A DNA stretch of 64,000 nt, from contig JAVCCU010000009.1 in assembly GCA_030765335.1 (NCBI GenBank), positions 5,559 to 69,558 of the forward strand, in the 5' to 3' direction. This stretch comes from Candidatus Kaelpia aquatica (lineage in GTDB: Bacteria > Omnitrophota > Gorgyraeia > Kaelpiales > Kaelpiaceae). This document shows positions 54,762 through 64,000 of the stretch, piece by piece. Every line of letters starts with the position of its first letter. The first letter of the stretch is position 1. The notes beneath the pieces are model-generated. The model worked only from the letters and a program-made list of their open reading frames with translations, was not told where the DNA came from and did not search any database. The translations under genes were made by a program, and so were the position numbers.

Positions 54762-55859
54762 TCAAAGATAGCTAAGACCTTCACTAAGAGCAGAGGTTAT
54801 TAAAGCTTTATCTACTAGAGAAGATACTGCCACCAAACCTATGGAACTTGGCAATACAAATCTTAAGGTTCCAAATTTAGCTTTTTTATCATAAAGAATG
54901 CTACTCAAAATTTTTTCCTGCTCCATCTTTCTGTTCATCTTGGGCAAAGTCTTAAACTTCAAGATTAAATTTATTATTCTCTTTAAATCATTTTCTTTCA
55001 AAACCCCAAGCTTATTAGCAATCAAACTCTCAACAACGAGACCAAAAGATACCGCCTCCCCATGAGATACTCTCTTATACTCAGAGACTGTCTCTATAGC
55101 ATGGGCTATTGTATGGCCTAAGTTTAAGGCTATCCTTATATCCTCACTGTCATACTCGTCTCTTTCGACAAACGACGTCTTTATTCTGCTGCATCTTAAA
55201 ACTATCTCACCCCATAAGCCCAGCGAGAAAGAAGATGGGTCTTCATTGCTAGACTCTAATAATTCAAAGAGCTCTACATCTCCCAAGATTCCATATTTTA
55301 TAATCTCGGATAACCCATTGGAGAATTCTTTAAGAGGCAGGCTCTTTAAGAAATTCAAATCGGATACAACCAGTTTAGGCTGGTAGAAAGCTCCCAGCAG
55401 ATTCTTACCCCATTTTAAATCTATCGCAACTTTCCCGCCAATACTCGAATCGACTTGAGCAAGAAGAGTAGTCGGGATCTGGATGAAAGGCACGCCTCTC
55501 TTGTAAATAGCCGCTAAAAATCCTACCAGGTCACCAACAACTCCTCCTCCAAAAGCTATAAAGAGTACGCTCTCAGCCTTAGAAAACTCAACCGTTGATC
55601 TTAGAAGGTCAAAAAGAACCTGCCAAGACTTACTCTTCTCAGAGTCCGCAACTTCCAAGAAAAGGCTCTCTTTGAATACCTCTAAATAAGGCTCTAAGTA
55701 ACCCTTATAAAGAGAGTATATATTTCTATTGGATACCACAACTGCTAAGTGCTTCTCTAGGTTTAACCTTACAATTTCATCTTTCAGAGATGAGAGCGCT
55801 CCCTCTGAAATCAGAATATCATAAGACCTACCCTGTAAATCTAGGTTTATTCTCTCCAT
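54762..55859 (-). CDS. aroB: 3-dehydroquinate synthase
   Basis: 365 aa. Gly-rich NAD motif (FGGGVVGDLVGF) and His metal-binding motifs (HTIAHAIE). Confidence 0.9.
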   Translation of the reverse strand: MERINLDLQGRSYDILISEGALSSLKDEIVRLNLEKHLAVVVSNRNIYSLYKGYLEPYLEVFKESLFLEVADSEKSKSWQVLFDLLRSTVEFSKAESVLFIAFGGGVVGDLVGFLAAIYKRGVPFIQIPTTLLAQVDSSIGGKVAIDLKWGKNLLGAFYQPKLVVSDLNFLKSLPLKEFSNGLSEIIKYGILGDVELFELLESSNEDPSSFSLGLWGEIVLRCSRIKTSFVERDEYDSEDIRIALNLGHTIAHAIETVSEYKRVSHGEAVSFGLVVESLIANKLGVLKENDLKRIINLILKFKTLPKMNRKMEQEKILSSILYDKKAKFGTLRFVLPSSIGLVAVSSLVDKALITSALSEGLSYL

Positions 55860-55876
55860 TAAAAATATAGACCCGT

Positions 55877-56137
55877 TTAAGACTTTTCTTTAACAGAACC
55901 ATCTGCAGGATTATCAGTCTTGCCTTCTGCTGCCTGACCTGCACCCTCAAGTTCTTCTTTCTTAGGCTCTTTCTTAAGAGCCTTCAACCTCGTTCTTTTG
56001 TACTTAGGCAGCTTAAATACTTCTAACCCTTCTTCTCCGGACTTCTTTAAAAACATAGCTATCCTCTCAAACCTTTTGAGTACATTTCTATGCTGTAAAT
56101 CCGAATCTTTAATCTTTAAGCTTGGATGTCTTGACAT
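55877..56137 (-). CDS. hypothetical small charged protein
   Basis: 86 aa, Lys/Glu-rich. Its stop abuts the aroB region. No motif recognised. Confidence 0.3.
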   Translation of the reverse strand: MSRHPSLKIKDSDLQHRNVLKRFERIAMFLKKSGEEGLEVFKLPKYKRTRLKALKKEPKKEELEGAGQAAEGKTDNPADGSVKEKS

Positions 56138-56709
56138 TACCTACCTCCTTTTAATCCTTTCATAAAAGCATCTTTATATGTTTTCCTTAATTCTACCAAC
56201 ACATTCTGAGCTTTACCCTGCTCGCTGTAATCCCCAACAAAGACAATCTTATACTTACCCTGTTCACGAATGTAAGAAGGAAAGCCCATCTTCTTAAGCT
56301 TATCTCTCTCAGCCTCAGCATAGGACATATTTTTGTATGTTACAACCTGTAAAGCAAATATCAGACCCGACAACTCTCTCTTCTTGTCCAACCCATTATC
56401 TCTAGGCTCGAAAACAACAGGGCTGGAGTCAGTAGAATCATTTTCGACTGCCTCCTCTTTATCTTCCACCGTTATACTGGAAAGAAGAACATCGGCTTCT
56501 TCCTTTGCGCTACTAACTGTTATACCTTTTTTATAACCACCGACATAACTGCCGACCATCAAAAAAAGAAAAACTATAACAGCTGCGCATATCTTCTCTT
56601 CGTTTATTCGAATATGCCTCTCCGTTATCAGCTTTAACCTTTTTCTTTTTTTCCGCCTGACAACATTCTTATCAATATCGGAAAATAGATTCTCTTTATA
56701 ATTTTCCAT
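56137..56709 (-). CDS. SPOR-domain membrane protein
   Basis: 190 aa. N-terminal TM and a C-terminal SPOR-like fold pattern (FALQVVTYKNMSYAEAERDKLKKMGFPSYIREQGKYKIVFVGDYSEQGKAQNVLVEL). Confidence 0.55.
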   Translation of the reverse strand: MENYKENLFSDIDKNVVRRKKRKRLKLITERHIRINEEKICAAVIVFLFLMVGSYVGGYKKGITVSSAKEEADVLLSSITVEDKEEAVENDSTDSSPVVFEPRDNGLDKKRELSGLIFALQVVTYKNMSYAEAERDKLKKMGFPSYIREQGKYKIVFVGDYSEQGKAQNVLVELRKTYKDAFMKGLKGGR

Positions 56710-56717
56710 AGACTAAA

Positions 56718-57476
56718 CTATTCGTGCTTAAAATCGAATTTAAAATCGACCCTTCCTAAGGCCTCATCATTTACATCAAAAGAAGTCTTTATATTAGACA
56801 TGATCAACTTTACATCTTCGGCTTTTGAGTTGGGCTTAAGAAAACAGAGGTAGCCATCATAGGTAACACCAGGATAGACATAGCCGCCGCTTAGCTCTAT
56901 AGATTTAAGCAGGGCAAATCTTTTCTTCAAACCCCTGCCGGCCAAACTCTTAGCCATATCCAAAGGGGCTCCATATACCCCAGAAGCTAAAGATGATGTC
57001 GATTTCGTAAAATTATACACTGAGCTCTTAGCTTCATAGACCTCTCTGATTCTCTCTGGGCTTATATAGAGATACTGAGTGCCAAGCTCATCCAGCAATA
57101 CAAAGTCATCGGGATTTATAAATATCCTGGATTCGGATTTATTTTCAATTCTTACTCTCACAACTATCATACCGTCCGGATATGGATTCTTTCCCGCGTA
57201 GGATCCATATATTTTTTTATCAAGAAATATATTTTTCAAGTTCTCCTCAGGCAGATACTCTACTGATATCCGTATACCATCCTCTTCCTGCTGCTGCTGA
57301 ACAGGAGTGAGACCATAAGCCGCCTTCTCAATCTCTTCTACAGGCTCAAGCCTACCTTTAGTCTTCTTCCCGTAGACATAGCCGCCGGCACAGCCTGATA
57401 TGGCTAAACATAAAAAAATAAGAATAAATCTTTTAATCACGCCCCTCTCCCTCCATAAACTCTTTAACTGCTGCAA
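56718..57476 (-). CDS. hypothetical lipoprotein
   Basis: 252 aa. Lipobox LAISGC. Confidence 0.45.
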   Translation of the reverse strand: MQQLKSLWRERGVIKRFILIFLCLAISGCAGGYVYGKKTKGRLEPVEEIEKAAYGLTPVQQQQEEDGIRISVEYLPEENLKNIFLDKKIYGSYAGKNPYPDGMIVVRVRIENKSESRIFINPDDFVLLDELGTQYLYISPERIREVYEAKSSVYNFTKSTSSLASGVYGAPLDMAKSLAGRGLKKRFALLKSIELSGGYVYPGVTYDGYLCFLKPNSKAEDVKLIMSNIKTSFDVNDEALGRVDFKFDFKHE

Positions 57477-57708
57477 TAATATGCTTATCTTGCGTATAAG
57501 AGTAGACTACCATAGCATAGCTCTTATCTTTGTTTAAAATATTCTTTTCCATAAGATATTCCAGCTGCTTAGCAATGAGGCTCTCTTCCTCGCCTATCCA
57601 TTTAGCAATACTCTCAGCTGTATCAATAGAGCCGGGGTTGTTGTAATAAAATTTTAGTACTTTTTTCAAGACTGAATCTCTATTGATTGTTTTAAAAAAT
57701 TTCTTCAT
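57433..57708 (-). CDS. hypothetical protein (91 aa)
   Basis: ORF translationally overlapping the HD-GYP gene upstream and the lipoprotein gene downstream. Confidence 0.3.
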   Translation of the reverse strand: MKKFFKTINRDSVLKKVLKFYYNNPGSIDTAESIAKWIGEEESLIAKQLEYLMEKNILNKDKSYAMVVYSYTQDKHIIAAVKEFMEGEGRD

Positions 57709-59222
57709 CTCTTTTTCTTGACCTCTTCCATCATACGCTGAGATATTCTTTTAATCTTTCCTTTATTAGCGCAAGCGATAAAAGCATCTACAACACCAGG
57801 GTCAAACTGCTTGCCTCTCTGTTTCAATATCTCATCCATAGCGGAGCTATAATTCTTAATCTTCTTATAAGGCCTGTGGCAGATCATTGCTTCAAAAGAA
57901 TCAGCAACAGCTAATATCCTTGCCCCAAGTGGAATCTTATTACCCTTTAGACCTTTGGGGTAGCCCTTTCCATCAAACCTTTCATGGTGATGCAGTATTA
58001 TAGGCACAGCAGGCTTCAAAGCCTTAACCTTCTTGATTATCTCAGCACCTTTAATTGGATGCTCCTGAACGGAACTATACTCTCTCTCCGTTAAAAGATC
58101 AGCCTTCTTAAGTATGTTCTCTGGAACAGCAATCTTTCCGGCATCCAAAAGCAAGGTTGCATATTTTATATACTCCCTCTCTTCTTGGGAAACTCCATAT
58201 TCATCAGCAATAGCAAGCACTAAATCAATGAAACTCTTTGGGTGAGTGTGGATCTCAGGCGACTTTGCCTCCAAAACATTTGATAGAGACTGTAAACTCT
58301 CTATTAAAATCTTATTTTGAGTCTCATATAGTCTAGCATTTTTAATAGCAACAACAGCCTGCTCTGATAAAACAGATAGAATCTCTTTATCATTTAAGTC
58401 AAACGGCCTTCCGTTCTGCTTCGACTTTAATCCAATTGCTCCGATAAGATCTTCTTCAATAAGAGGCACCCAGAGCGCATTCTTGCTAAGAACAATGGTT
58501 CCAGCCTCTAAAGCTTTACCAATCTTAGAATTAAAAAGATCTATCTTATGAGGTTTCTCTGAAGAATCAACGGAAGCAGCAGTCTTAGGCTTCAAATAGT
58601 TTCCGAATCTCAAATATATAGCACAGCTTTTAGCCCGTGTTACCTGAAGACACAACCTTGCAAGACGAGGTAAAAGTTCATCCATATTAAGAGTTGAAGA
58701 TATTAAGCGATGAACAGTGTGGACCGAAGAGAGAGCAATAGCACGAGGCCGCAGAGTACCATGAACCTTGATCAGCTCCAGCTCTTTTAAGGCTTTCTCT
58801 AGAGAGATGGCCAAATAATCCTCAATAAAATCAAGCACTTTCTTGGATAGCTTCCCATTCTCTATAATAAGACAAATATAACCATAATTAGCTCCCCCAT
58901 GAACAAGGGGGTAGACCCAGATACTCTCCTTAAACTTAGATTTCACCTCTTCAAAACAGCCGCTTCTAGATGCCTGCTGCATCTTGTCTTTTATTCTCTC
59001 TACGACTATTTTTTCAATCTTAGTTTTTAGACCATATCCTTTTACTATCTTTTTAAGCTTCTTTAGCAGCTCCTGAATCGGACTCTTCGACTCCGATCTG
59101 GAAAAAAGGATCAATGCTGCATTAGAATCTGAAAACTTATCCAGATGGAATTTAAGTCTTTCCAGGTCCCCTCCCTTATCTAGGGCCTCAATAACATTTT
59201 TCTCTAAAACTATCTCGCTCAT
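57705..59222 (-). CDS. HD-GYP domain protein (c-di-GMP phosphodiesterase family; HD dyad degenerate)
   Basis: 505 aa. C-terminal HHHERFDGKGYPKGL (HD-GYP) motif, but the canonical LHDIGK reads LLDAGK. N-terminal region is GAF-like or uncharacterised. Confidence 0.7.
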   Translation of the reverse strand: MSEIVLEKNVIEALDKGGDLERLKFHLDKFSDSNAALILFSRSESKSPIQELLKKLKKIVKGYGLKTKIEKIVVERIKDKMQQASRSGCFEEVKSKFKESIWVYPLVHGGANYGYICLIIENGKLSKKVLDFIEDYLAISLEKALKELELIKVHGTLRPRAIALSSVHTVHRLISSTLNMDELLPRLARLCLQVTRAKSCAIYLRFGNYLKPKTAASVDSSEKPHKIDLFNSKIGKALEAGTIVLSKNALWVPLIEEDLIGAIGLKSKQNGRPFDLNDKEILSVLSEQAVVAIKNARLYETQNKILIESLQSLSNVLEAKSPEIHTHPKSFIDLVLAIADEYGVSQEEREYIKYATLLLDAGKIAVPENILKKADLLTEREYSSVQEHPIKGAEIIKKVKALKPAVPIILHHHERFDGKGYPKGLKGNKIPLGARILAVADSFEAMICHRPYKKIKNYSSAMDEILKQRGKQFDPGVVDAFIACANKGKIKRISQRMMEEVKKKR

Positions 59223-59325
59223 ATGCAGTTATTCTACAACAAGAAGCGATCTTTTTCAACAATGGATAAAGCATTTAGAGCACTAAAGAATGGGATATAT
59301 TTATTTAATAGCTGTATAGATTAAA

Positions 59326-60513
59326 TCAAACCATTTCCAGAGGATCAAACAGCTTGCGATATTCATCTGCAGCAAAACTATCGGTCATAGAGGCTATATA
59401 GTCGGATATGGTGCGCTTAAGCCCTTCTTTTTTTATCCTACGCTGAATATCGTCGGGCAACTGAGCAGGTTTTTTATAATAAACATTGAATAACTCTGTT
59501 AGAATCCTCCTGGCTTTATCAGACATCCTAACAACCCGATAATGGTGATATAGGTTCTGATAGAGGAAATCTCTTAATGGTTTTCTTCTCTTCTGCATAG
59601 TAATGCTAAAAGCTATAAGTCTTTTAGCTGCCCCTCTCACATCTTCTACAGAACGGATTGATTCTAGATTCCTAAATGAATTTTTAATTAAATCCTTAAC
59701 ATCCATATCTATCAGGGACCTGATCACCTGATGCTTTTTAAATCTTGTAGATATATTTGAGTAACGCTTCTTAACTCTCTTCTCCGCCTCTCTCCATAAC
59801 TCCAGCTTTTTCAAATCCGAAATAGCAATTAAACCTGAAGTTATCCCATCGTCTAAATCGTGACTATCATATGCAATTTCATCCGCAATATTTACAACTT
59901 GAGCTTCAAGTGTAGGCTGCTCCTGATTGCAAAACTCGCTTAGGTTTAACTTGTCATATTTTTTAAAGCTCTGAGGGTTTAAATTCTTATACCCGTTATC
60001 ATAGCGCGTGCTATGTTTTAGAAACCCCTCTCTGACCTCCCAAGTAAGATTTAACCCGTTAAAATCCGGATACCTTAACTCCAAATAATCCACTATCCTC
60101 AACCCCTGAAGATTATGATCAAAGCCCCCGACGTCAGCAACTAAGCAATTCAAAGTCTCTTCTCCTGAATGTCCAAAAGGAGTATGGCCAATATCGTGAC
60201 CTAAGGCGATCGCTTCGACAAGATCTGTATTTAATGATAGAACCCGGGCAACAGAACGTGCAATCTGAGCAACCTCAAGACTATGAGTCAGGCGAGTTCT
60301 ATAGTAATCGCCTTCATGTATCAAGAAAACCTGAGTTTTATACTCTAAACGCCTAAAAGCAGTAGAATGTATAACCCTATCTCTATCCCTCTGAAAACAA
60401 GTTCTATAATCATCTTCGGCTTCGCTATGTTTTCTACCCCTACTAAGCGAGCTTTTAAAAGCATAGGATGCTAATATTTTATTCTCTAAGTTTTGGTACT
60501 CTTTTCTATTCAT
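59326..60513 (-). CDS. dgt: dGTP triphosphohydrolase-like HD phosphohydrolase
   Basis: 395 aa. RLTHSLEVAQIARSVA and ALGHDIGHTPFGHSGE motifs of the Dgt family. Confidence 0.85.
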   Translation of the reverse strand: MNRKEYQNLENKILASYAFKSSLSRGRKHSEAEDDYRTCFQRDRDRVIHSTAFRRLEYKTQVFLIHEGDYYRTRLTHSLEVAQIARSVARVLSLNTDLVEAIALGHDIGHTPFGHSGEETLNCLVADVGGFDHNLQGLRIVDYLELRYPDFNGLNLTWEVREGFLKHSTRYDNGYKNLNPQSFKKYDKLNLSEFCNQEQPTLEAQVVNIADEIAYDSHDLDDGITSGLIAISDLKKLELWREAEKRVKKRYSNISTRFKKHQVIRSLIDMDVKDLIKNSFRNLESIRSVEDVRGAAKRLIAFSITMQKRRKPLRDFLYQNLYHHYRVVRMSDKARRILTELFNVYYKKPAQLPDDIQRRIKKEGLKRTISDYIASMTDSFAADEYRKLFDPLEMV

Positions 60514-60514
60514 C

Positions 60515-60982
60515 TCATTTTAGCAGCTGGTATAAATCGTTTAAAGATTGAGATAAAACGTTGGTATCGGATAGAATTGACATAAAGCTTGTATCTCCAA
60601 CCCAGCGAGGCACAATATGAAAATGGATATGATTTTTTATTCCAGCTCCTGCTGCTGCACCGATATTCAACCCGATATTAAAACCTTCAGGATTTAATCT
60701 TTCTTGCAGCCTCTCCTTAAAATCCTTGATCAACTTAAAAATCTCACTCAATTCAGAATCATCCAAATCGCTAAGATCTGAAACATGCCTACGAGGAGCA
60801 ATCATCAGATGGCCGTTGTTGTAGGGATATATATTAAGCAAGACAAAGGAGTGCTTACCTCTTGATAAAACATAATTAACTTCATCGTCCCTGCTCTTTA
60901 ATTTTTTGCAAAATATACAATCTTTATCCTTATCAGGATTTAAAATATATTCCATCCTCCATGGAGCCCAAATATTCTTCAT
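60515..60982 (-). CDS. HIT-family hydrolase
   Basis: 155 aa. Histidine-triad motif HIHFHIVPR. Preceded by GHLMIAPRRH. Confidence 0.8.
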   Translation of the reverse strand: MKNIWAPWRMEYILNPDKDKDCIFCKKLKSRDDEVNYVLSRGKHSFVLLNIYPYNNGHLMIAPRRHVSDLSDLDDSELSEIFKLIKDFKERLQERLNPEGFNIGLNIGAAAGAGIKNHIHFHIVPRWVGDTSFMSILSDTNVLSQSLNDLYQLLK

Positions 60983-60984
60983 AG

Positions 60985-61941
60985 TTAGAATATTATTATT
61001 AACGGAACTACCAATAAAAGCAACAGCATTAACTCGTAAGCTCTGTTCAGCTTTCTGAACCTAAGCAGGACAAATAGCACCACTGTTACTATCTCTACAG
61101 CTACAAGTGTATAGAGATGGGAGGATGACATCTTTGAAAAAATAGGTACCTTGAAAGAGACTATCTCCAAGATAGGTATGATGGCTATATCTAAAGCATT
61201 GCTTCCTATTATATTTCCTATAGCCATAGCATGAGACCTGTTCATGAGAGCTGAAACTGTTACAACAAGCTCTGGTAAAGATGTAATGACACCTAAAAAA
61301 AGTGTTCCAAAAAAAACATAGTTCAACATAGACCTCTCAACAATAATCTTAGATTGAATAACTGTAAGCTGAGCAAAAAACGCCATTGCAATCAAAGCAA
61401 TTATAAATACAGCCCATTCTTTCAAACAACCTTTGTCATTACTGGGCTTAGAAGAAACAATATCAGCCTGGCCGTCTCTAATCTCACCTTTAAGAAAAAT
61501 TAAGTATAGAATTACTATAAAAATATTTTCTAATCCAAAGCTGAAAATATCCAGATCAAAGCCTGCAAAACTCCTTAGGATGATCGAAACCGCAATCAAA
61601 GCCTGCAATATTAAGATTATAAATATTCCCTTAAAATTTTTACTTTTCCTTAAAAACCCGCCCTTAGACACGCAAAGATCCAGCAGTATTAAAATAAAAA
61701 GATTGCTCAGAAGAGACCCAAATATATTTCCTAAAGCTAAATCAAAAATCTTACTTTTAACAGCAATTACAGAAGTAAGCAGCTCTGGAGCAGATGTGGC
61801 CAAAGCAAGAAAGAAGACACCCATAAAACCTTCGGATATTCGACTCTTCTTTGCTATTAGAGACCCATACTTACAAGATATATAGCCAGACAGAAAGATG
61901 GCGATAGAGTATAGCGCGAACTTAAGCCAGGCTATCAACAT
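60985..61941 (-). CDS. Ca2+/Na+ (CaCA family, YrbG-like) antiporter
   Basis: 318 aa. Two alpha-repeat motifs (GNIFGSLLSNLFIL and GNIIGSNALDIAI). About 10 TM helices. Confidence 0.75.
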   Translation of the reverse strand: MLIAWLKFALYSIAIFLSGYISCKYGSLIAKKSRISEGFMGVFFLALATSAPELLTSVIAVKSKIFDLALGNIFGSLLSNLFILILLDLCVSKGGFLRKSKNFKGIFIILILQALIAVSIILRSFAGFDLDIFSFGLENIFIVILYLIFLKGEIRDGQADIVSSKPSNDKGCLKEWAVFIIALIAMAFFAQLTVIQSKIIVERSMLNYVFFGTLFLGVITSLPELVVTVSALMNRSHAMAIGNIIGSNALDIAIIPILEIVSFKVPIFSKMSSSHLYTLVAVEIVTVVLFVLLRFRKLNRAYELMLLLLLVVPLIIIF

Positions 61942-63556
61942 TATTCTTCCCGGTTACAGAATAGAACTCACAGAGCTTAGTTAGAAATTCCATATCCCAA
62001 ATCCAAAACCCCTTGGTCTTTAGTATCAAATTTACATTATTATCCTCTAGCTGATTAGGAACAATTGCTATCTTCTGATTAAATCTTACCTGACTATCTT
62101 TAAGTCTCTCTATAATGGCATAGCTATCCTGCTCCTTAAATCCTGGGGAAACTACAAGGAAGAGCCAGTGTCCAGCACCCTCCCTCTTTGCGCAAAAGAG
62201 AACATAGTTTTGACCTTGAGACTCTTTTTCAAGAGATAAGATTTTAGGCAACTGTTTCCTTTTCCCGGATAAGTCTATAAACTCATTGTCAAATTTCAAG
62301 ATAAGCTCTTTTACGACAGCCTCTATCTCTAGCATCGGTTTATCGCTATGAAAGAGATTGGAGCCAAAGTTAACGCAGTCCAGTTCTTTCTCCAGCATCT
62401 CCATGCGAGCCTTAAAACCTATTCCCAGCCCCATGAGATCTGCACTATAAGCATAGAGAAGCCATATTCTAAAAAGCGGATCCTTTATCCGGAAAAAACT
62501 ACCATTCTTCTCTAGGAAACCGTTCATAGAATAACCGGAATCTGCATAAGAGAGGTCCAGCTTCTTAAGGCTCTTTTTCTTTGTATTACCTCTTGCAATC
62601 TCAATAATAAAAGGCAAAAATTCCTGAAACTTCTCAACCCCGGGATAATTTTTCAATTTTTCACCAAAGAACCTATAAAGAAAACCTTTGTTATTGATCA
62701 GATTTTCTCTGATTACCAGAATGAGACTTTCAGAGTCAAATCTATCTACATTCTCTTGAACCCAAGATGTTAATATATCAAGATAGAGAGGTACGCCCGC
62801 GGTTAAAGTTATTAGTCTATCTATAGCAACATCATTCATCTCTCTTATTTTTCCCATTCTGGACTCTATAAACCCTCTAGACTCCTGATATGAGAATTTA
62901 TCTAACTCCATAATCTCAAAATTGCCAAACAACAGAGAGAGCTCTGAATTTAAAACAGATTTAGACCTATCCTGATCTGAACTCATTAATATAAATAAAG
63001 CATGTTCATCCAGCATGATATGCTCTCTCAATATCTGCATCCAATAATTCAGCTTAAGCTTACTCAAGCCAAAAAATTCATCTATAACGAAGAGGGAGTT
63101 CTTCTTGAACTCTTTCTTGATCAGGAGCGGAAGGCGCAATATCGAGCTCATTAAAAGCTCATAATTGTTATTCTTAAGACCTAACTCTATGTTTCTTACA
63201 ATAGAACTAAAAGCTGGATAATCCCTATCGATAACCCTCCCGCTCTCAGCTGCACTATCTATAAAAAAATTACTATCTACTAAGGAGAACCTACGCAGAG
63301 AATGGAGTAAAAACCCTAAAAAACTCTCTTTCAAAAACCCTTCTTCAAGATTGAGGTAGATAGGAAAAAGGTCTTCTCCTAAATCATCGTGTATAAATTT
63401 AAGAATGAGTGATGTCTTACCGATACTCCAAGGACCCAGAATAGCAAGATTTCTCCTATAGCCATCAAGATAATCATTCTTTATCTTCTTTAATCTTTCT
63501 ACCTCTTTCTCTCTTGAGGAAAACTCTTCTTTTGCTACAGGGCCTATTTTTATCAT
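61922..63556 (-). CDS. P-loop ATPase of the Arch_ATPase type with C-terminal uncharacterised (DUF234/nuclease-like) region
   Basis: 544 aa. Walker A ILGPWSIGKTSL preceded by SSREKEVERL (the FxxRExEL lead-in typical of Arch_ATPase). Walker B LFVIDEF. Confidence 0.6.
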   Translation of the reverse strand: MIKIGPVAKEEFSSREKEVERLKKIKNDYLDGYRRNLAILGPWSIGKTSLILKFIHDDLGEDLFPIYLNLEEGFLKESFLGFLLHSLRRFSLVDSNFFIDSAAESGRVIDRDYPAFSSIVRNIELGLKNNNYELLMSSILRLPLLIKKEFKKNSLFVIDEFFGLSKLKLNYWMQILREHIMLDEHALFILMSSDQDRSKSVLNSELSLLFGNFEIMELDKFSYQESRGFIESRMGKIREMNDVAIDRLITLTAGVPLYLDILTSWVQENVDRFDSESLILVIRENLINNKGFLYRFFGEKLKNYPGVEKFQEFLPFIIEIARGNTKKKSLKKLDLSYADSGYSMNGFLEKNGSFFRIKDPLFRIWLLYAYSADLMGLGIGFKARMEMLEKELDCVNFGSNLFHSDKPMLEIEAVVKELILKFDNEFIDLSGKRKQLPKILSLEKESQGQNYVLFCAKREGAGHWLFLVVSPGFKEQDSYAIIERLKDSQVRFNQKIAIVPNQLEDNNVNLILKTKGFWIWDMEFLTKLCEFYSVTGKNNVDSLA

Positions 63557-63566
63557 TGAATAAAAA

Positions 63567-64000
63567 TTATTTTAAAAATTTTAATGGATCTAAAGGATTG
63601 TTCTCTCTCCTTACCTCAAAGTGCAATACCCCGTTCTCTTTATCAACGCGGGATATGGAATCACCCTGCTTAACATAATCACCTTTTTTAACTAAAAGAA
63701 CATCGTTGTAAGCATAGAGCGAATAGAGCCCTCCCCCGTGATCAATCATTACAACCTTATCATAGCCTTTTATATCTTCACCAGAATAGCAGACCTCACC
63801 CGAAGCCGCAGCAATTACTCTCTGAGATGAAGATAGTTTTATATCTATACCCTTATTAATCCCACTGGAAGTTGAATCTTTAAAGTAGGATATAACCTTG
63901 CCTTTAACAGGCCAAATAAAATCAGAGCTGGACAGACTCTGTTTTACAGCTCTACTTGGAATATACAATAATTGACCCTCCTTTATCCTGGAAGGGTCGT
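63567..64000 (-). CDS. M23-family peptidase (LytM domain); N-terminus probably beyond window edge
   Basis: Catalytic-domain motifs (GIDI, IDHGGGLYSLYAY). The reading frame stays open upstream of the first Met (63968) to the window end, so the gene is likely partial. Confidence 0.7.
   Translation of the reverse strand, partial: DPSRIKEGQLLYIPSRAVKQSLSSSDFIWPVKGKVISYFKDSTSSGINKGIDIKLSSSQRVIAAASGEVCYSGEDIKGYDKVVMIDHGGGLYSLYAYNDVLLVKKGDYVKQGDSISRVDKENGVLHFEVRRENNPLDPLKFLK

Follow-up and report, generated by a model that had tools for sequence, protein, structure and literature searches.

The solved proteins nearest to the one described here are two archaeal ATPase_2 proteins, PABY2304 of Pyrococcus abyssi (2qen) and SSO1545 of Sulfolobus solfataricus (2fna), which are about 350 amino acids (aa) long and end after a winged helix. 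ATPase_2 is also found together with DUF234 (PF03008), a combination catalogued as PD-(D/E)XK family 76, 'DEXX-box ATPase' (Steczkiewicz et al. 2012, PMC3424549), and a related arrangement is seen in the Orc/CDC6-iREase-wHTH modules, in which an inactive restriction-endonuclease-fold domain (iREase) is placed between an AAA+ core and a winged helix; these modules are encoded in mobile defence neighbourhoods, together with HerA/FtsK and nucleases that are active (PMC10853773). A gene for a protein of comparable composition lies near the end of a 64,000-nucleotide (nt) stretch of the genome of Candidatus Kaelpia aquatica, phylum Omnitrophota (assembly GCA_030765335.1, contig JAVCCU010000009.1, positions 5,559 to 69,558 of the forward strand; hereafter the window); the genus name Kaelpia appears in a paper on Antarctic-lake Omnitrophota (PMC8542988). 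The 544-aa product is 100% identical to the database entry 'ATP-binding protein' of Candidatus Kaelpia aquatica, and its full-length homologues range down to 21-25% identity. According to an AlphaFold2 (AF2) model of the full protein (predicted local distance difference test score, pLDDT, 86.2; predicted template modelling score, pTM, 0.83) and Pfam searches, it is made of an ATPase_2 module, a winged helix, a helical linker and a degenerate Mrr-type nuclease-fold domain (Table 1). The family is a lineage-specific ATPase_2-winged helix protein with a private, degenerate Mrr-like domain that is now a core gene, and the kind of architecture it represents is already known.

Comparison with the described systems shows both what is shared and what is particular to this family. 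The first 375 residues are held in common with 2qen and 2fna, and the window protein matches the fold of the solved ATPase_2 members, consisting of a nucleotide-binding domain (NBD), a lid and a winged helix. Whereas the archaeal proteins end at this point, the Omnitrophota family continues with a linker helix and a nuclease-fold domain of ~125 aa, and it is bacterial, restricted to a single phylum and a core gene. The ATPase_2-DUF234 proteins follow the same logic, in that ATPase_2 is succeeded by a C-terminal domain of the PD-(D/E)xK superfamily; however, the C-terminal module of the window family is nearest to Mrr_cat, is without the catalytic residues and is private. Nucleases of the Mrr type (PF04471; AF1548/1y88; the nuclease domain of LlaBIII) have the fold in common but keep their active site, whereas the Omnitrophota family has an extra beta-hairpin, modelled at residues 425-436 between helix 1 and the core sheet, and is found in a non-restriction-modification context. 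The iREase systems (NA-iREase3, PF22739, and the Orc/CDC6 modules) are assembled from the same parts, namely an ORC/Cdc6- or STAND-like ATPase, a winged helix and a non-catalytic fold, but in the window protein the winged helix comes before the nuclease-fold domain, and its gene belongs to the non-mobile core, among housekeeping neighbours. ORC/Cdc6 initiators and STAND NTPases (NLRs, Avs) also share the NBD, the helical GxP lid and the winged helix with the window protein; their matches, compared by fold similarity only, are far weaker than those to 2qen and 2fna, and the window protein has no repeat sensor domains and is not known to be associated with a replication origin.

The part of the protein that sets it apart is the C-terminal domain. 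When residues 378-544 were modelled alone (pLDDT 86.7), the order of elements was helix, hairpin, three antiparallel strands, helix, strand, helix, strand, helix, and the core alpha-beta-beta-beta-alpha-beta fold of the PD-(D/E)xK superfamily was present. A structure comparison with this model gave matches to restriction-endonuclease-fold proteins, the RPB5 N-domain among the best and N.BspD6I, Can2, AspBHI, FokI, MspJI, Card1, NucS and Avs4 ranked lower. A Foldseek search was weaker, with zero matches at E<=1e-3, but its top three matches, at a probability of at least 0.99, were again RPB5, EndoMS/NucS and EcoT38I. Of these, RPB5 is what we take to be a non-catalytic example of the restriction-endonuclease fold. 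The closest Pfam family by sequence is Mrr_cat (PF04471), the group in which 1y88 was placed by Steczkiewicz et al. 2012 (PMC3424549). It is matched by six of the 38 C-terminal segments searched (best E 2e-4) and by the family consensus over profile positions 48-115 of 115, at 20.8 bits against a gathering threshold of 21; in the Pfam search of the query itself no Mrr_cat match appeared. Two members match NA-iREase3 (PF22739) weakly (E 0.06-0.16), and the segment S-G-(I/L)-D-E-N-A-R is similar to S-G-F-T-S-Q-A-R of E. coli Mrr.

An initial annotation of this gene had tentatively assigned the C-terminal ~200 aa to DUF234 as a predicted nuclease. Searches for PF03008 found nothing in the query or the consensus at E<=10, and the families listed for 71 homologues and for 38 C-terminal segments do not include it; the DUF234 identity was rejected. 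The nuclease-like fold proposed for this part of the protein is borne out, however the ~200 aa do not form a single region, being divided into the winged helix (~305-375), the linker helix (381-399) and the domain of ~125 aa. A HMMER search of 1.84 billion representative proteins with a profile of the C-terminal domain retrieved 364 proteins at E<=1e-3; among the best 150 of these, the domain is always C-terminal, in proteins of ~520-600 aa (mostly 530-570) or fragments thereof. This placement argues that the domain is private to the ATPase family, unlike the widespread DUF234.

Whether the nuclease site is intact was judged from the alignment columns. Since hhalign of the C-terminal profile to Mrr of E. 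coli, as a single sequence, was too weak for this purpose (E 0.048, probability 1%), the catalytic columns were read from column statistics over 71 sequences, with strands assigned from the AF2 secondary structure. All three core strands (439-447, 451-458 and 463-469) are hydrophobic, and a conserved D in strand 2 with (D/E/Q)xK in strand 3 was not found in the core strands of these sequences: position 453 is acidic in only 25 of the 71, V, A or I predominate at 467, and 30 sequences have K at 469. In the window protein the canonical catalytic positions are occupied by L453, L467 and V469, all of them hydrophobic. On the strength of these columns and of the residues in the query, the domain is most likely a non-catalytic version of the restriction-endonuclease fold. 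The nuclease predicted by the initial annotation is accordingly upheld as to its fold, by structure prediction, but not as to the canonical PD-(D/E)XK catalytic residues, which are absent. Conservation is instead seen at aromatic or hydrophobic core positions (F422, F439, W464, W518 and W520) and at basic positions (409, 414, 432, 433, 486, 487, 494, 495, 509 and 516), and the domain probably binds nucleic acid.

Acidic and amide residues are likewise conserved away from the canonical site, with E/D425 in 71/71 sequences, E475 in 69/71, D/E504 in 66/71 and D/E521 in 49/71, together with N507 and N526. It has to be considered that E/D425, E475, D/E504 and D/E521 could bind metal in a non-canonical active site, making the protein an active nuclease with ATP-controlled cleavage of DNA or RNA, for example in repair. 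This explanation is retained as a rival because the strand assignment rests on predicted structure; the near-invariance of the first three of these positions would suit it, as would the clearly restriction-endonuclease-like fold and the fact that the PD-(D/E)xK superfamily is known for migrated or variant active sites (PMC3424549). We nevertheless regard it as unlikely: the core strands have no conserved lysine, the D504-x-x-N507-A-R509 segment corresponds by sequence to the 'T-S-Q-A-R' segment of Mrr, which is outside the catalytic strands, the Mrr_cat match is limited to profile positions 48-115, and the best structure matches include the non-catalytic RPB5 N-domain.

In the N-terminal module the Walker A, Walker B and GxP lid motifs are intact. 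The query matches PF01637 over profile positions 1-222 of 225 (E 6e-8), a whole-profile match whose 33.1 bits fall 0.1 under the gathering threshold of 33.2, while 63 of the 71 homologues match the family at E<=0.01, the consensus reaches 44.7 bits, and PF01637 is listed in the precomputed Pfam annotation of the identical database protein. The assignment to ATPase_2 is secure at family level, in agreement with the initial annotation, whose quoted motifs, F12-SSREKEVERL-22 and the Walker B sequence LFVIDEF, are both present in addition to a Walker A. Against the Protein Data Bank, the family profile matched 2fna (SSO1545) with an E of 5e-8 over positions 31-372, a stretch that begins at the P-loop and takes in the whole winged helix; matches to RecA concatemers were disregarded, as they arise only from summed repeated P-loop matches. 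A pair of serines after strand 4 (S192-S193) and the lid motif G254-x-P256 are conserved in at least 90% of the 71 sequences and, given the conservation of these and of both Walker motifs, the module looks nucleotide-binding competent. A family signature, L206-SLLFGNFE-214, contains four invariant residues (L209, F210, G211 and F213) and four conserved in at least 90% of sequences (S207, L208, N212 and E214), and aligns with 'SPLFGRaFstvEL' of 2fna. The Arg of the 2fna 'LFGR' is Asn in the Omnitrophota family, a difference that is non-diagnostic; loss of an arginine finger was considered and dropped, as the distant ATPase_2 relatives P0080 and P0081 are also without this Arg.

Between the two modules lies a winged helix, included in the alignment with 2fna, for which the family consensus scores 24.9 bits against HTH_5, over the 22-bit threshold. 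HTH_5 is matched by 10 of the 71 members, and matches to ArsR/MarR-type helix-turn-helix (HTH) families occur in several. In proteins of the Kaelpia clade the recognition-helix region (residues ~333-342, window ~62530-62560) has a 5-residue deletion that sets them apart from the other family members, and the pLDDT of the model falls there; degeneration of the DNA-binding helix may be under way in this lineage. The architecture of NBD, GxP lid and winged helix is one that STAND-type transcription regulators have in common, and the protein could be pictured as an ATP-dependent regulator in the manner of MalT, AfsR or IniR, its winged helix controlling the M23, YfcE, HIT and dGTPase genes of its neighbourhood, which is fixed. 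The ArsR/MarR-type matches agree with such a function, and SSO1545 (2fna) is reportedly named as structurally related to IniR, a signal-transduction ATPase of mycobacteria (PMC5760070). However, the gene lies within the co-directional block, where junctions overlap or nearly abut, and in this it resembles a member of an operon more than a regulator; in the Kaelpia clade the protein is kept although its winged helix is eroded; and the strongly conserved nuclease-fold domain would be left without a role. A regulator of this type is therefore given a low probability.

The distribution of the gene bears directly on its function. A search for the pattern [LF]SLLFGNFE in species-representative genomes, with one genome per species, recovered 540 confirmed relatives, and the best 80 of these 540 loci come from 80 different assemblies labelled as Omnitrophota, generic PVC or 'uncultured'. 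With ~700 Omnitrophota species representatives in GTDB R232 (bioRxiv 10.64898/2026.06.07.730766), the gene is present in roughly three-quarters of the species of the phylum, which is a lower bound because an exact 9-residue motif already finds that many. It is apparently single-copy, with no second copy of the ATPase in the 64-kb window, and no relatives were found in IMG/VR viral contigs, PLSDB plasmids or INPHARED phages. The ATPase and its neighbours ThiC, dGTPase, M23, YfcE and HIT show correlated pairwise identities (Pearson 0.80-0.89). The distribution is phylum-wide, vertical and non-mobile. One homologue (P0040) is labelled 'Elusimicrobiota bacterium' by NCBI and groups in the family alignment with P0043 and P0046, the latter located in typical Omnitrophota synteny; an error of binning or naming probably accounts for the label, rather than an occurrence of the family beyond the phylum.

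This pattern is difficult to combine with the role in surveillance or defence that had been suggested for proteins of this kind, in which an anti-phage or anti-plasmid NTPase would pair an ATPase_2 sensor with a nuclease effector for the destruction of incoming nucleic acid. A patchy distribution and a location in islands are typical of defence genes. When the setting of the homologues was checked for defence islands (82 loci), it was one of housekeeping synteny, and the window neighbourhood holds no methyltransferase or other defence gene, as the initial annotation had already observed. No PADLOC family matched the ATPase at E<=10, and the sole match among the NCBIfam antiphage models, DS8_antiphage, reached 13 bits against a cutoff of 790 and is noise. 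A near-universal, vertically inherited core gene in a fixed housekeeping block, with distances that track those of its neighbours, and absent from PADLOC and from the viral, plasmid and phage collections, does not fit a defence system; with the canonical catalytic residues of the supposed effector also absent, we consider defence very improbable.

Synteny was scored over 82 non-redundant loci, the denominators varying with the number of assessable loci (Table 1). The gene order around the ATPase, ThiC, M23, ATPase, YfcE and dGTPase, is co-directional and conserved across the phylum. The ATPase stop codon and the YfcE start share a 4-nt overlap at 44 of the 66 junctions between the two genes, suggesting translational coupling; the identity of the YfcE gene is supported by a TIGR00040 match of 122 bits, over the cutoff of 56 (example L003:7620-8102). 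To our knowledge, the natural substrates of the YfcE family are poorly known. The Kaelpia clade has no adjacent YfcE gene, and no YfcE homologue is present anywhere in the window; the adjacent gene is lost in this clade. In a large subclade (L013, L015, L023, L031-L034, L045-L047 and others) the place of M23 is taken by a gene for a PfkB-like sugar kinase of ~305 aa, separated from the ATPase gene by a non-coding gap of 300-400 bp, and M23 was rejected as an obligate partner.

The M23 gene also invites a reading in which the ATPase is a non-enzymatic scaffold tied to the cell envelope or to division through the LysM-M23 amidase activator encoded upstream. That gene is adjacent in 40 of 72 loci, its stop is 10 nt from the ATPase start in the window, and the best NCBIfam matches of its product are ActS, NlpD and DipM. 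Since the kinase gene stands in for M23 in the large subclade, the model of the ATPase shows no signal peptide or membrane segment while M23 activators are periplasmic, and all domains of the ATPase point to nucleic acid, we judge this to be extremely unlikely.

The account that we favour, and to which we give about an even chance, is that of an Omnitrophota-specific, vertically inherited core protein acting as an ATP/ADP switch that binds nucleic acid, in a housekeeping function and not in defence. Residues 1-300 form an ATPase_2-type, AAA+/STAND-like nucleotide-binding domain with a helical lid, in which Walker A, Walker B and GxP are intact, and the protein would be an ATP/ADP-driven switch of the ORC/Cdc6-STAND kind, neither a motor nor a nuclease. 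Binding of nucleic acid, probably DNA, would fall to the winged helix and the basic, non-catalytic nuclease-fold domain, with the nucleotide state gating this binding or self-assembly. In most Omnitrophota the protein would be made together with the YfcE-family metallophosphoesterase, which possibly supplies catalysis in trans; in the Kaelpia lineage of the window the adjacent partner gene has been lost. The role would lie in DNA or nucleotide transactions rather than in anti-phage defence.

Several points weigh against this account. We infer its mechanism from domain content and gene context, and catalytic loss was judged from sequence columns on predicted secondary structure, not by residue-level superposition, such that the conserved acids E/D425, E475, D/E504 and D/E521 could still make a non-canonical active site. 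The winged-helix deletion in Kaelpia and the lower pLDDT around it weaken the case for DNA binding by the window protein in particular. The ratio of 540 to ~700 assumes one match per genome, and the species total is taken from a preprint. The rate of evolution of the ATPase is about double that of its neighbours (median identity ~33% vs 55%), which is uncommon among core factors of DNA transactions and is a trait that conflict-related genes show as well. Lastly, where the neighbours are functionally unrelated, conserved synteny may have persisted because genomes rearrange slowly, without any functional link. A more specific proposal, which we hold to be tentative and rather unlikely as a whole, is that the protein is an essential chromosome-transaction factor of Omnitrophota: an ORC/Cdc6-like switch whose dead Mrr-type domain, perhaps a reader of DNA structure or modification, would bind DNA together with the winged helix, and which in most lineages would recruit the translationally coupled YfcE as its catalytic partner, possibly having been domesticated long ago from a defence-type ATPase-nuclease.

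Table 1. Features of the ATPase gene and its surroundings in the window, with the conserved position of neighbouring genes relative to the ATPase gene across the phylum.
Feature	Residues	Window position	Strand	Remarks	Conserved position relative to ATPase gene (loci)
ATPase coding sequence, complete	544 aa	61922-63556	minus	open reading frame (ORF) listing
ATPase_2 (PF01637) nucleotide-binding domain and lid	12-259	62780-63523	minus
Walker A / P-loop	G41-PWSIGKT-48 (then S49)	63413-63436	minus	G41 and G46 invariant, K47 at least 90% in 71 sequences
Walker B	L155-FVIDEF-161	63074-63094	minus	F161 invariant, D159/E160 at least 90% in 71 sequences
Family signature	L206-SLLFGNFE-214	62915-62941	minus	loop between helix 195-204 and strand 214-217
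Winged helix-turn-helix and following conserved helix (D359, W365)	~307-375	62432-62638	minus
Long linker helix	381-399	62360-62416	minus	AF2 models
Restriction-endonuclease-like (Mrr-type) domain without canonical catalytic residues	~408-535 (~125 aa)	61952-62335	minus
ThiC					within 3 kb upstream (41/57)
LysM + M23 (LytM) amidase-activator-like gene		63567-64000	minus	upstream neighbour, cut by window end	adjacent upstream (40/72)
YfcE-family phosphodiesterase					adjacent downstream (66/77)
Ca/Na antiporter gene		60985-61941	minus	downstream neighbour; start overlaps ATPase 3' end by 20 nt	within 4 kb downstream (31/72)
HIT-family gene		60515-60982	minus	conserved block	within 4 kb downstream (38/72)
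dGTP triphosphohydrolase gene		59326-60513	minus	conserved block	within 4 kb downstream (69/72)
GAF + HD-GYP protein, putative cyclic di-GMP phosphodiesterase	505 aa	57705-59222	minus	just downstream of conserved block

The immediate neighbours of the ATPase gene in the window, an M23 peptidase gene and a Ca/Na antiporter gene in a housekeeping setting, are those that had been described initially. The LysM-M23 gene encodes 218 aa at its full length on the source contig (L085:6576-7232). The top NCBIfam match of the HIT-family protein is 'ATP adenylyltransferase', at 148 bits and under the cutoff of 290, rather than a plain Hint protein. The window dGTPase scores 509 bits with the housekeeping equivalog model NF002326 of NCBIfam (cutoff 390), which it passes; for the anti-phage dGTPase model its 256 bits fall short of the required 400. 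The block includes several genes for nucleotide hydrolases, namely HIT and dGTPase, with YfcE in other lineages. The GAF + HD-GYP protein encoded beyond it has a NosR-family response regulator as its top NCBIfam match, under the cutoff. The minus strand carries 50 of the 55 window ORFs of at least 150 aa, and the plus-strand GC skew is negative over all of the 55-64 kb region (composition profiled for 55000-64000), which together fit a long co-directional gene array on the leading strand. An ORF of 150 aa on the plus strand (61433-61885), with a TTG start and antisense to the Ca/Na antiporter gene, is almost certainly no gene.

The Omnitrophota are widespread, mostly ultra-small and possibly host-dependent or predatory, with a single cultured representative (PMC10066038; bioRxiv 10.64898/2026.06.07.730766), so that lineage-specific core genes are among the few clues to the biology of their cells. 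Most species of the phylum have retained the present family, whose gene has a set position in a housekeeping block, and the family provides an example of an ATPase-nuclease architecture, usually linked to defence, that is fixed as a core gene with a degenerated nuclease site. The annotation 'ATP-binding protein' could be refined to 'ATPase_2-wHTH protein with a degenerate Mrr-like domain' (wHTH, winged helix-turn-helix), for which labels referring to DUF234 or defence are unsuitable. The translational coupling with YfcE in most lineages suggests a two-protein system that can be tested; if true, the ATPase and YfcE would constitute a previously unrecognised two-component machine for DNA or nucleotide processing. 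Its core status, the dead nuclease domain and the coupling to YfcE make this family a reasonable target for biochemistry.

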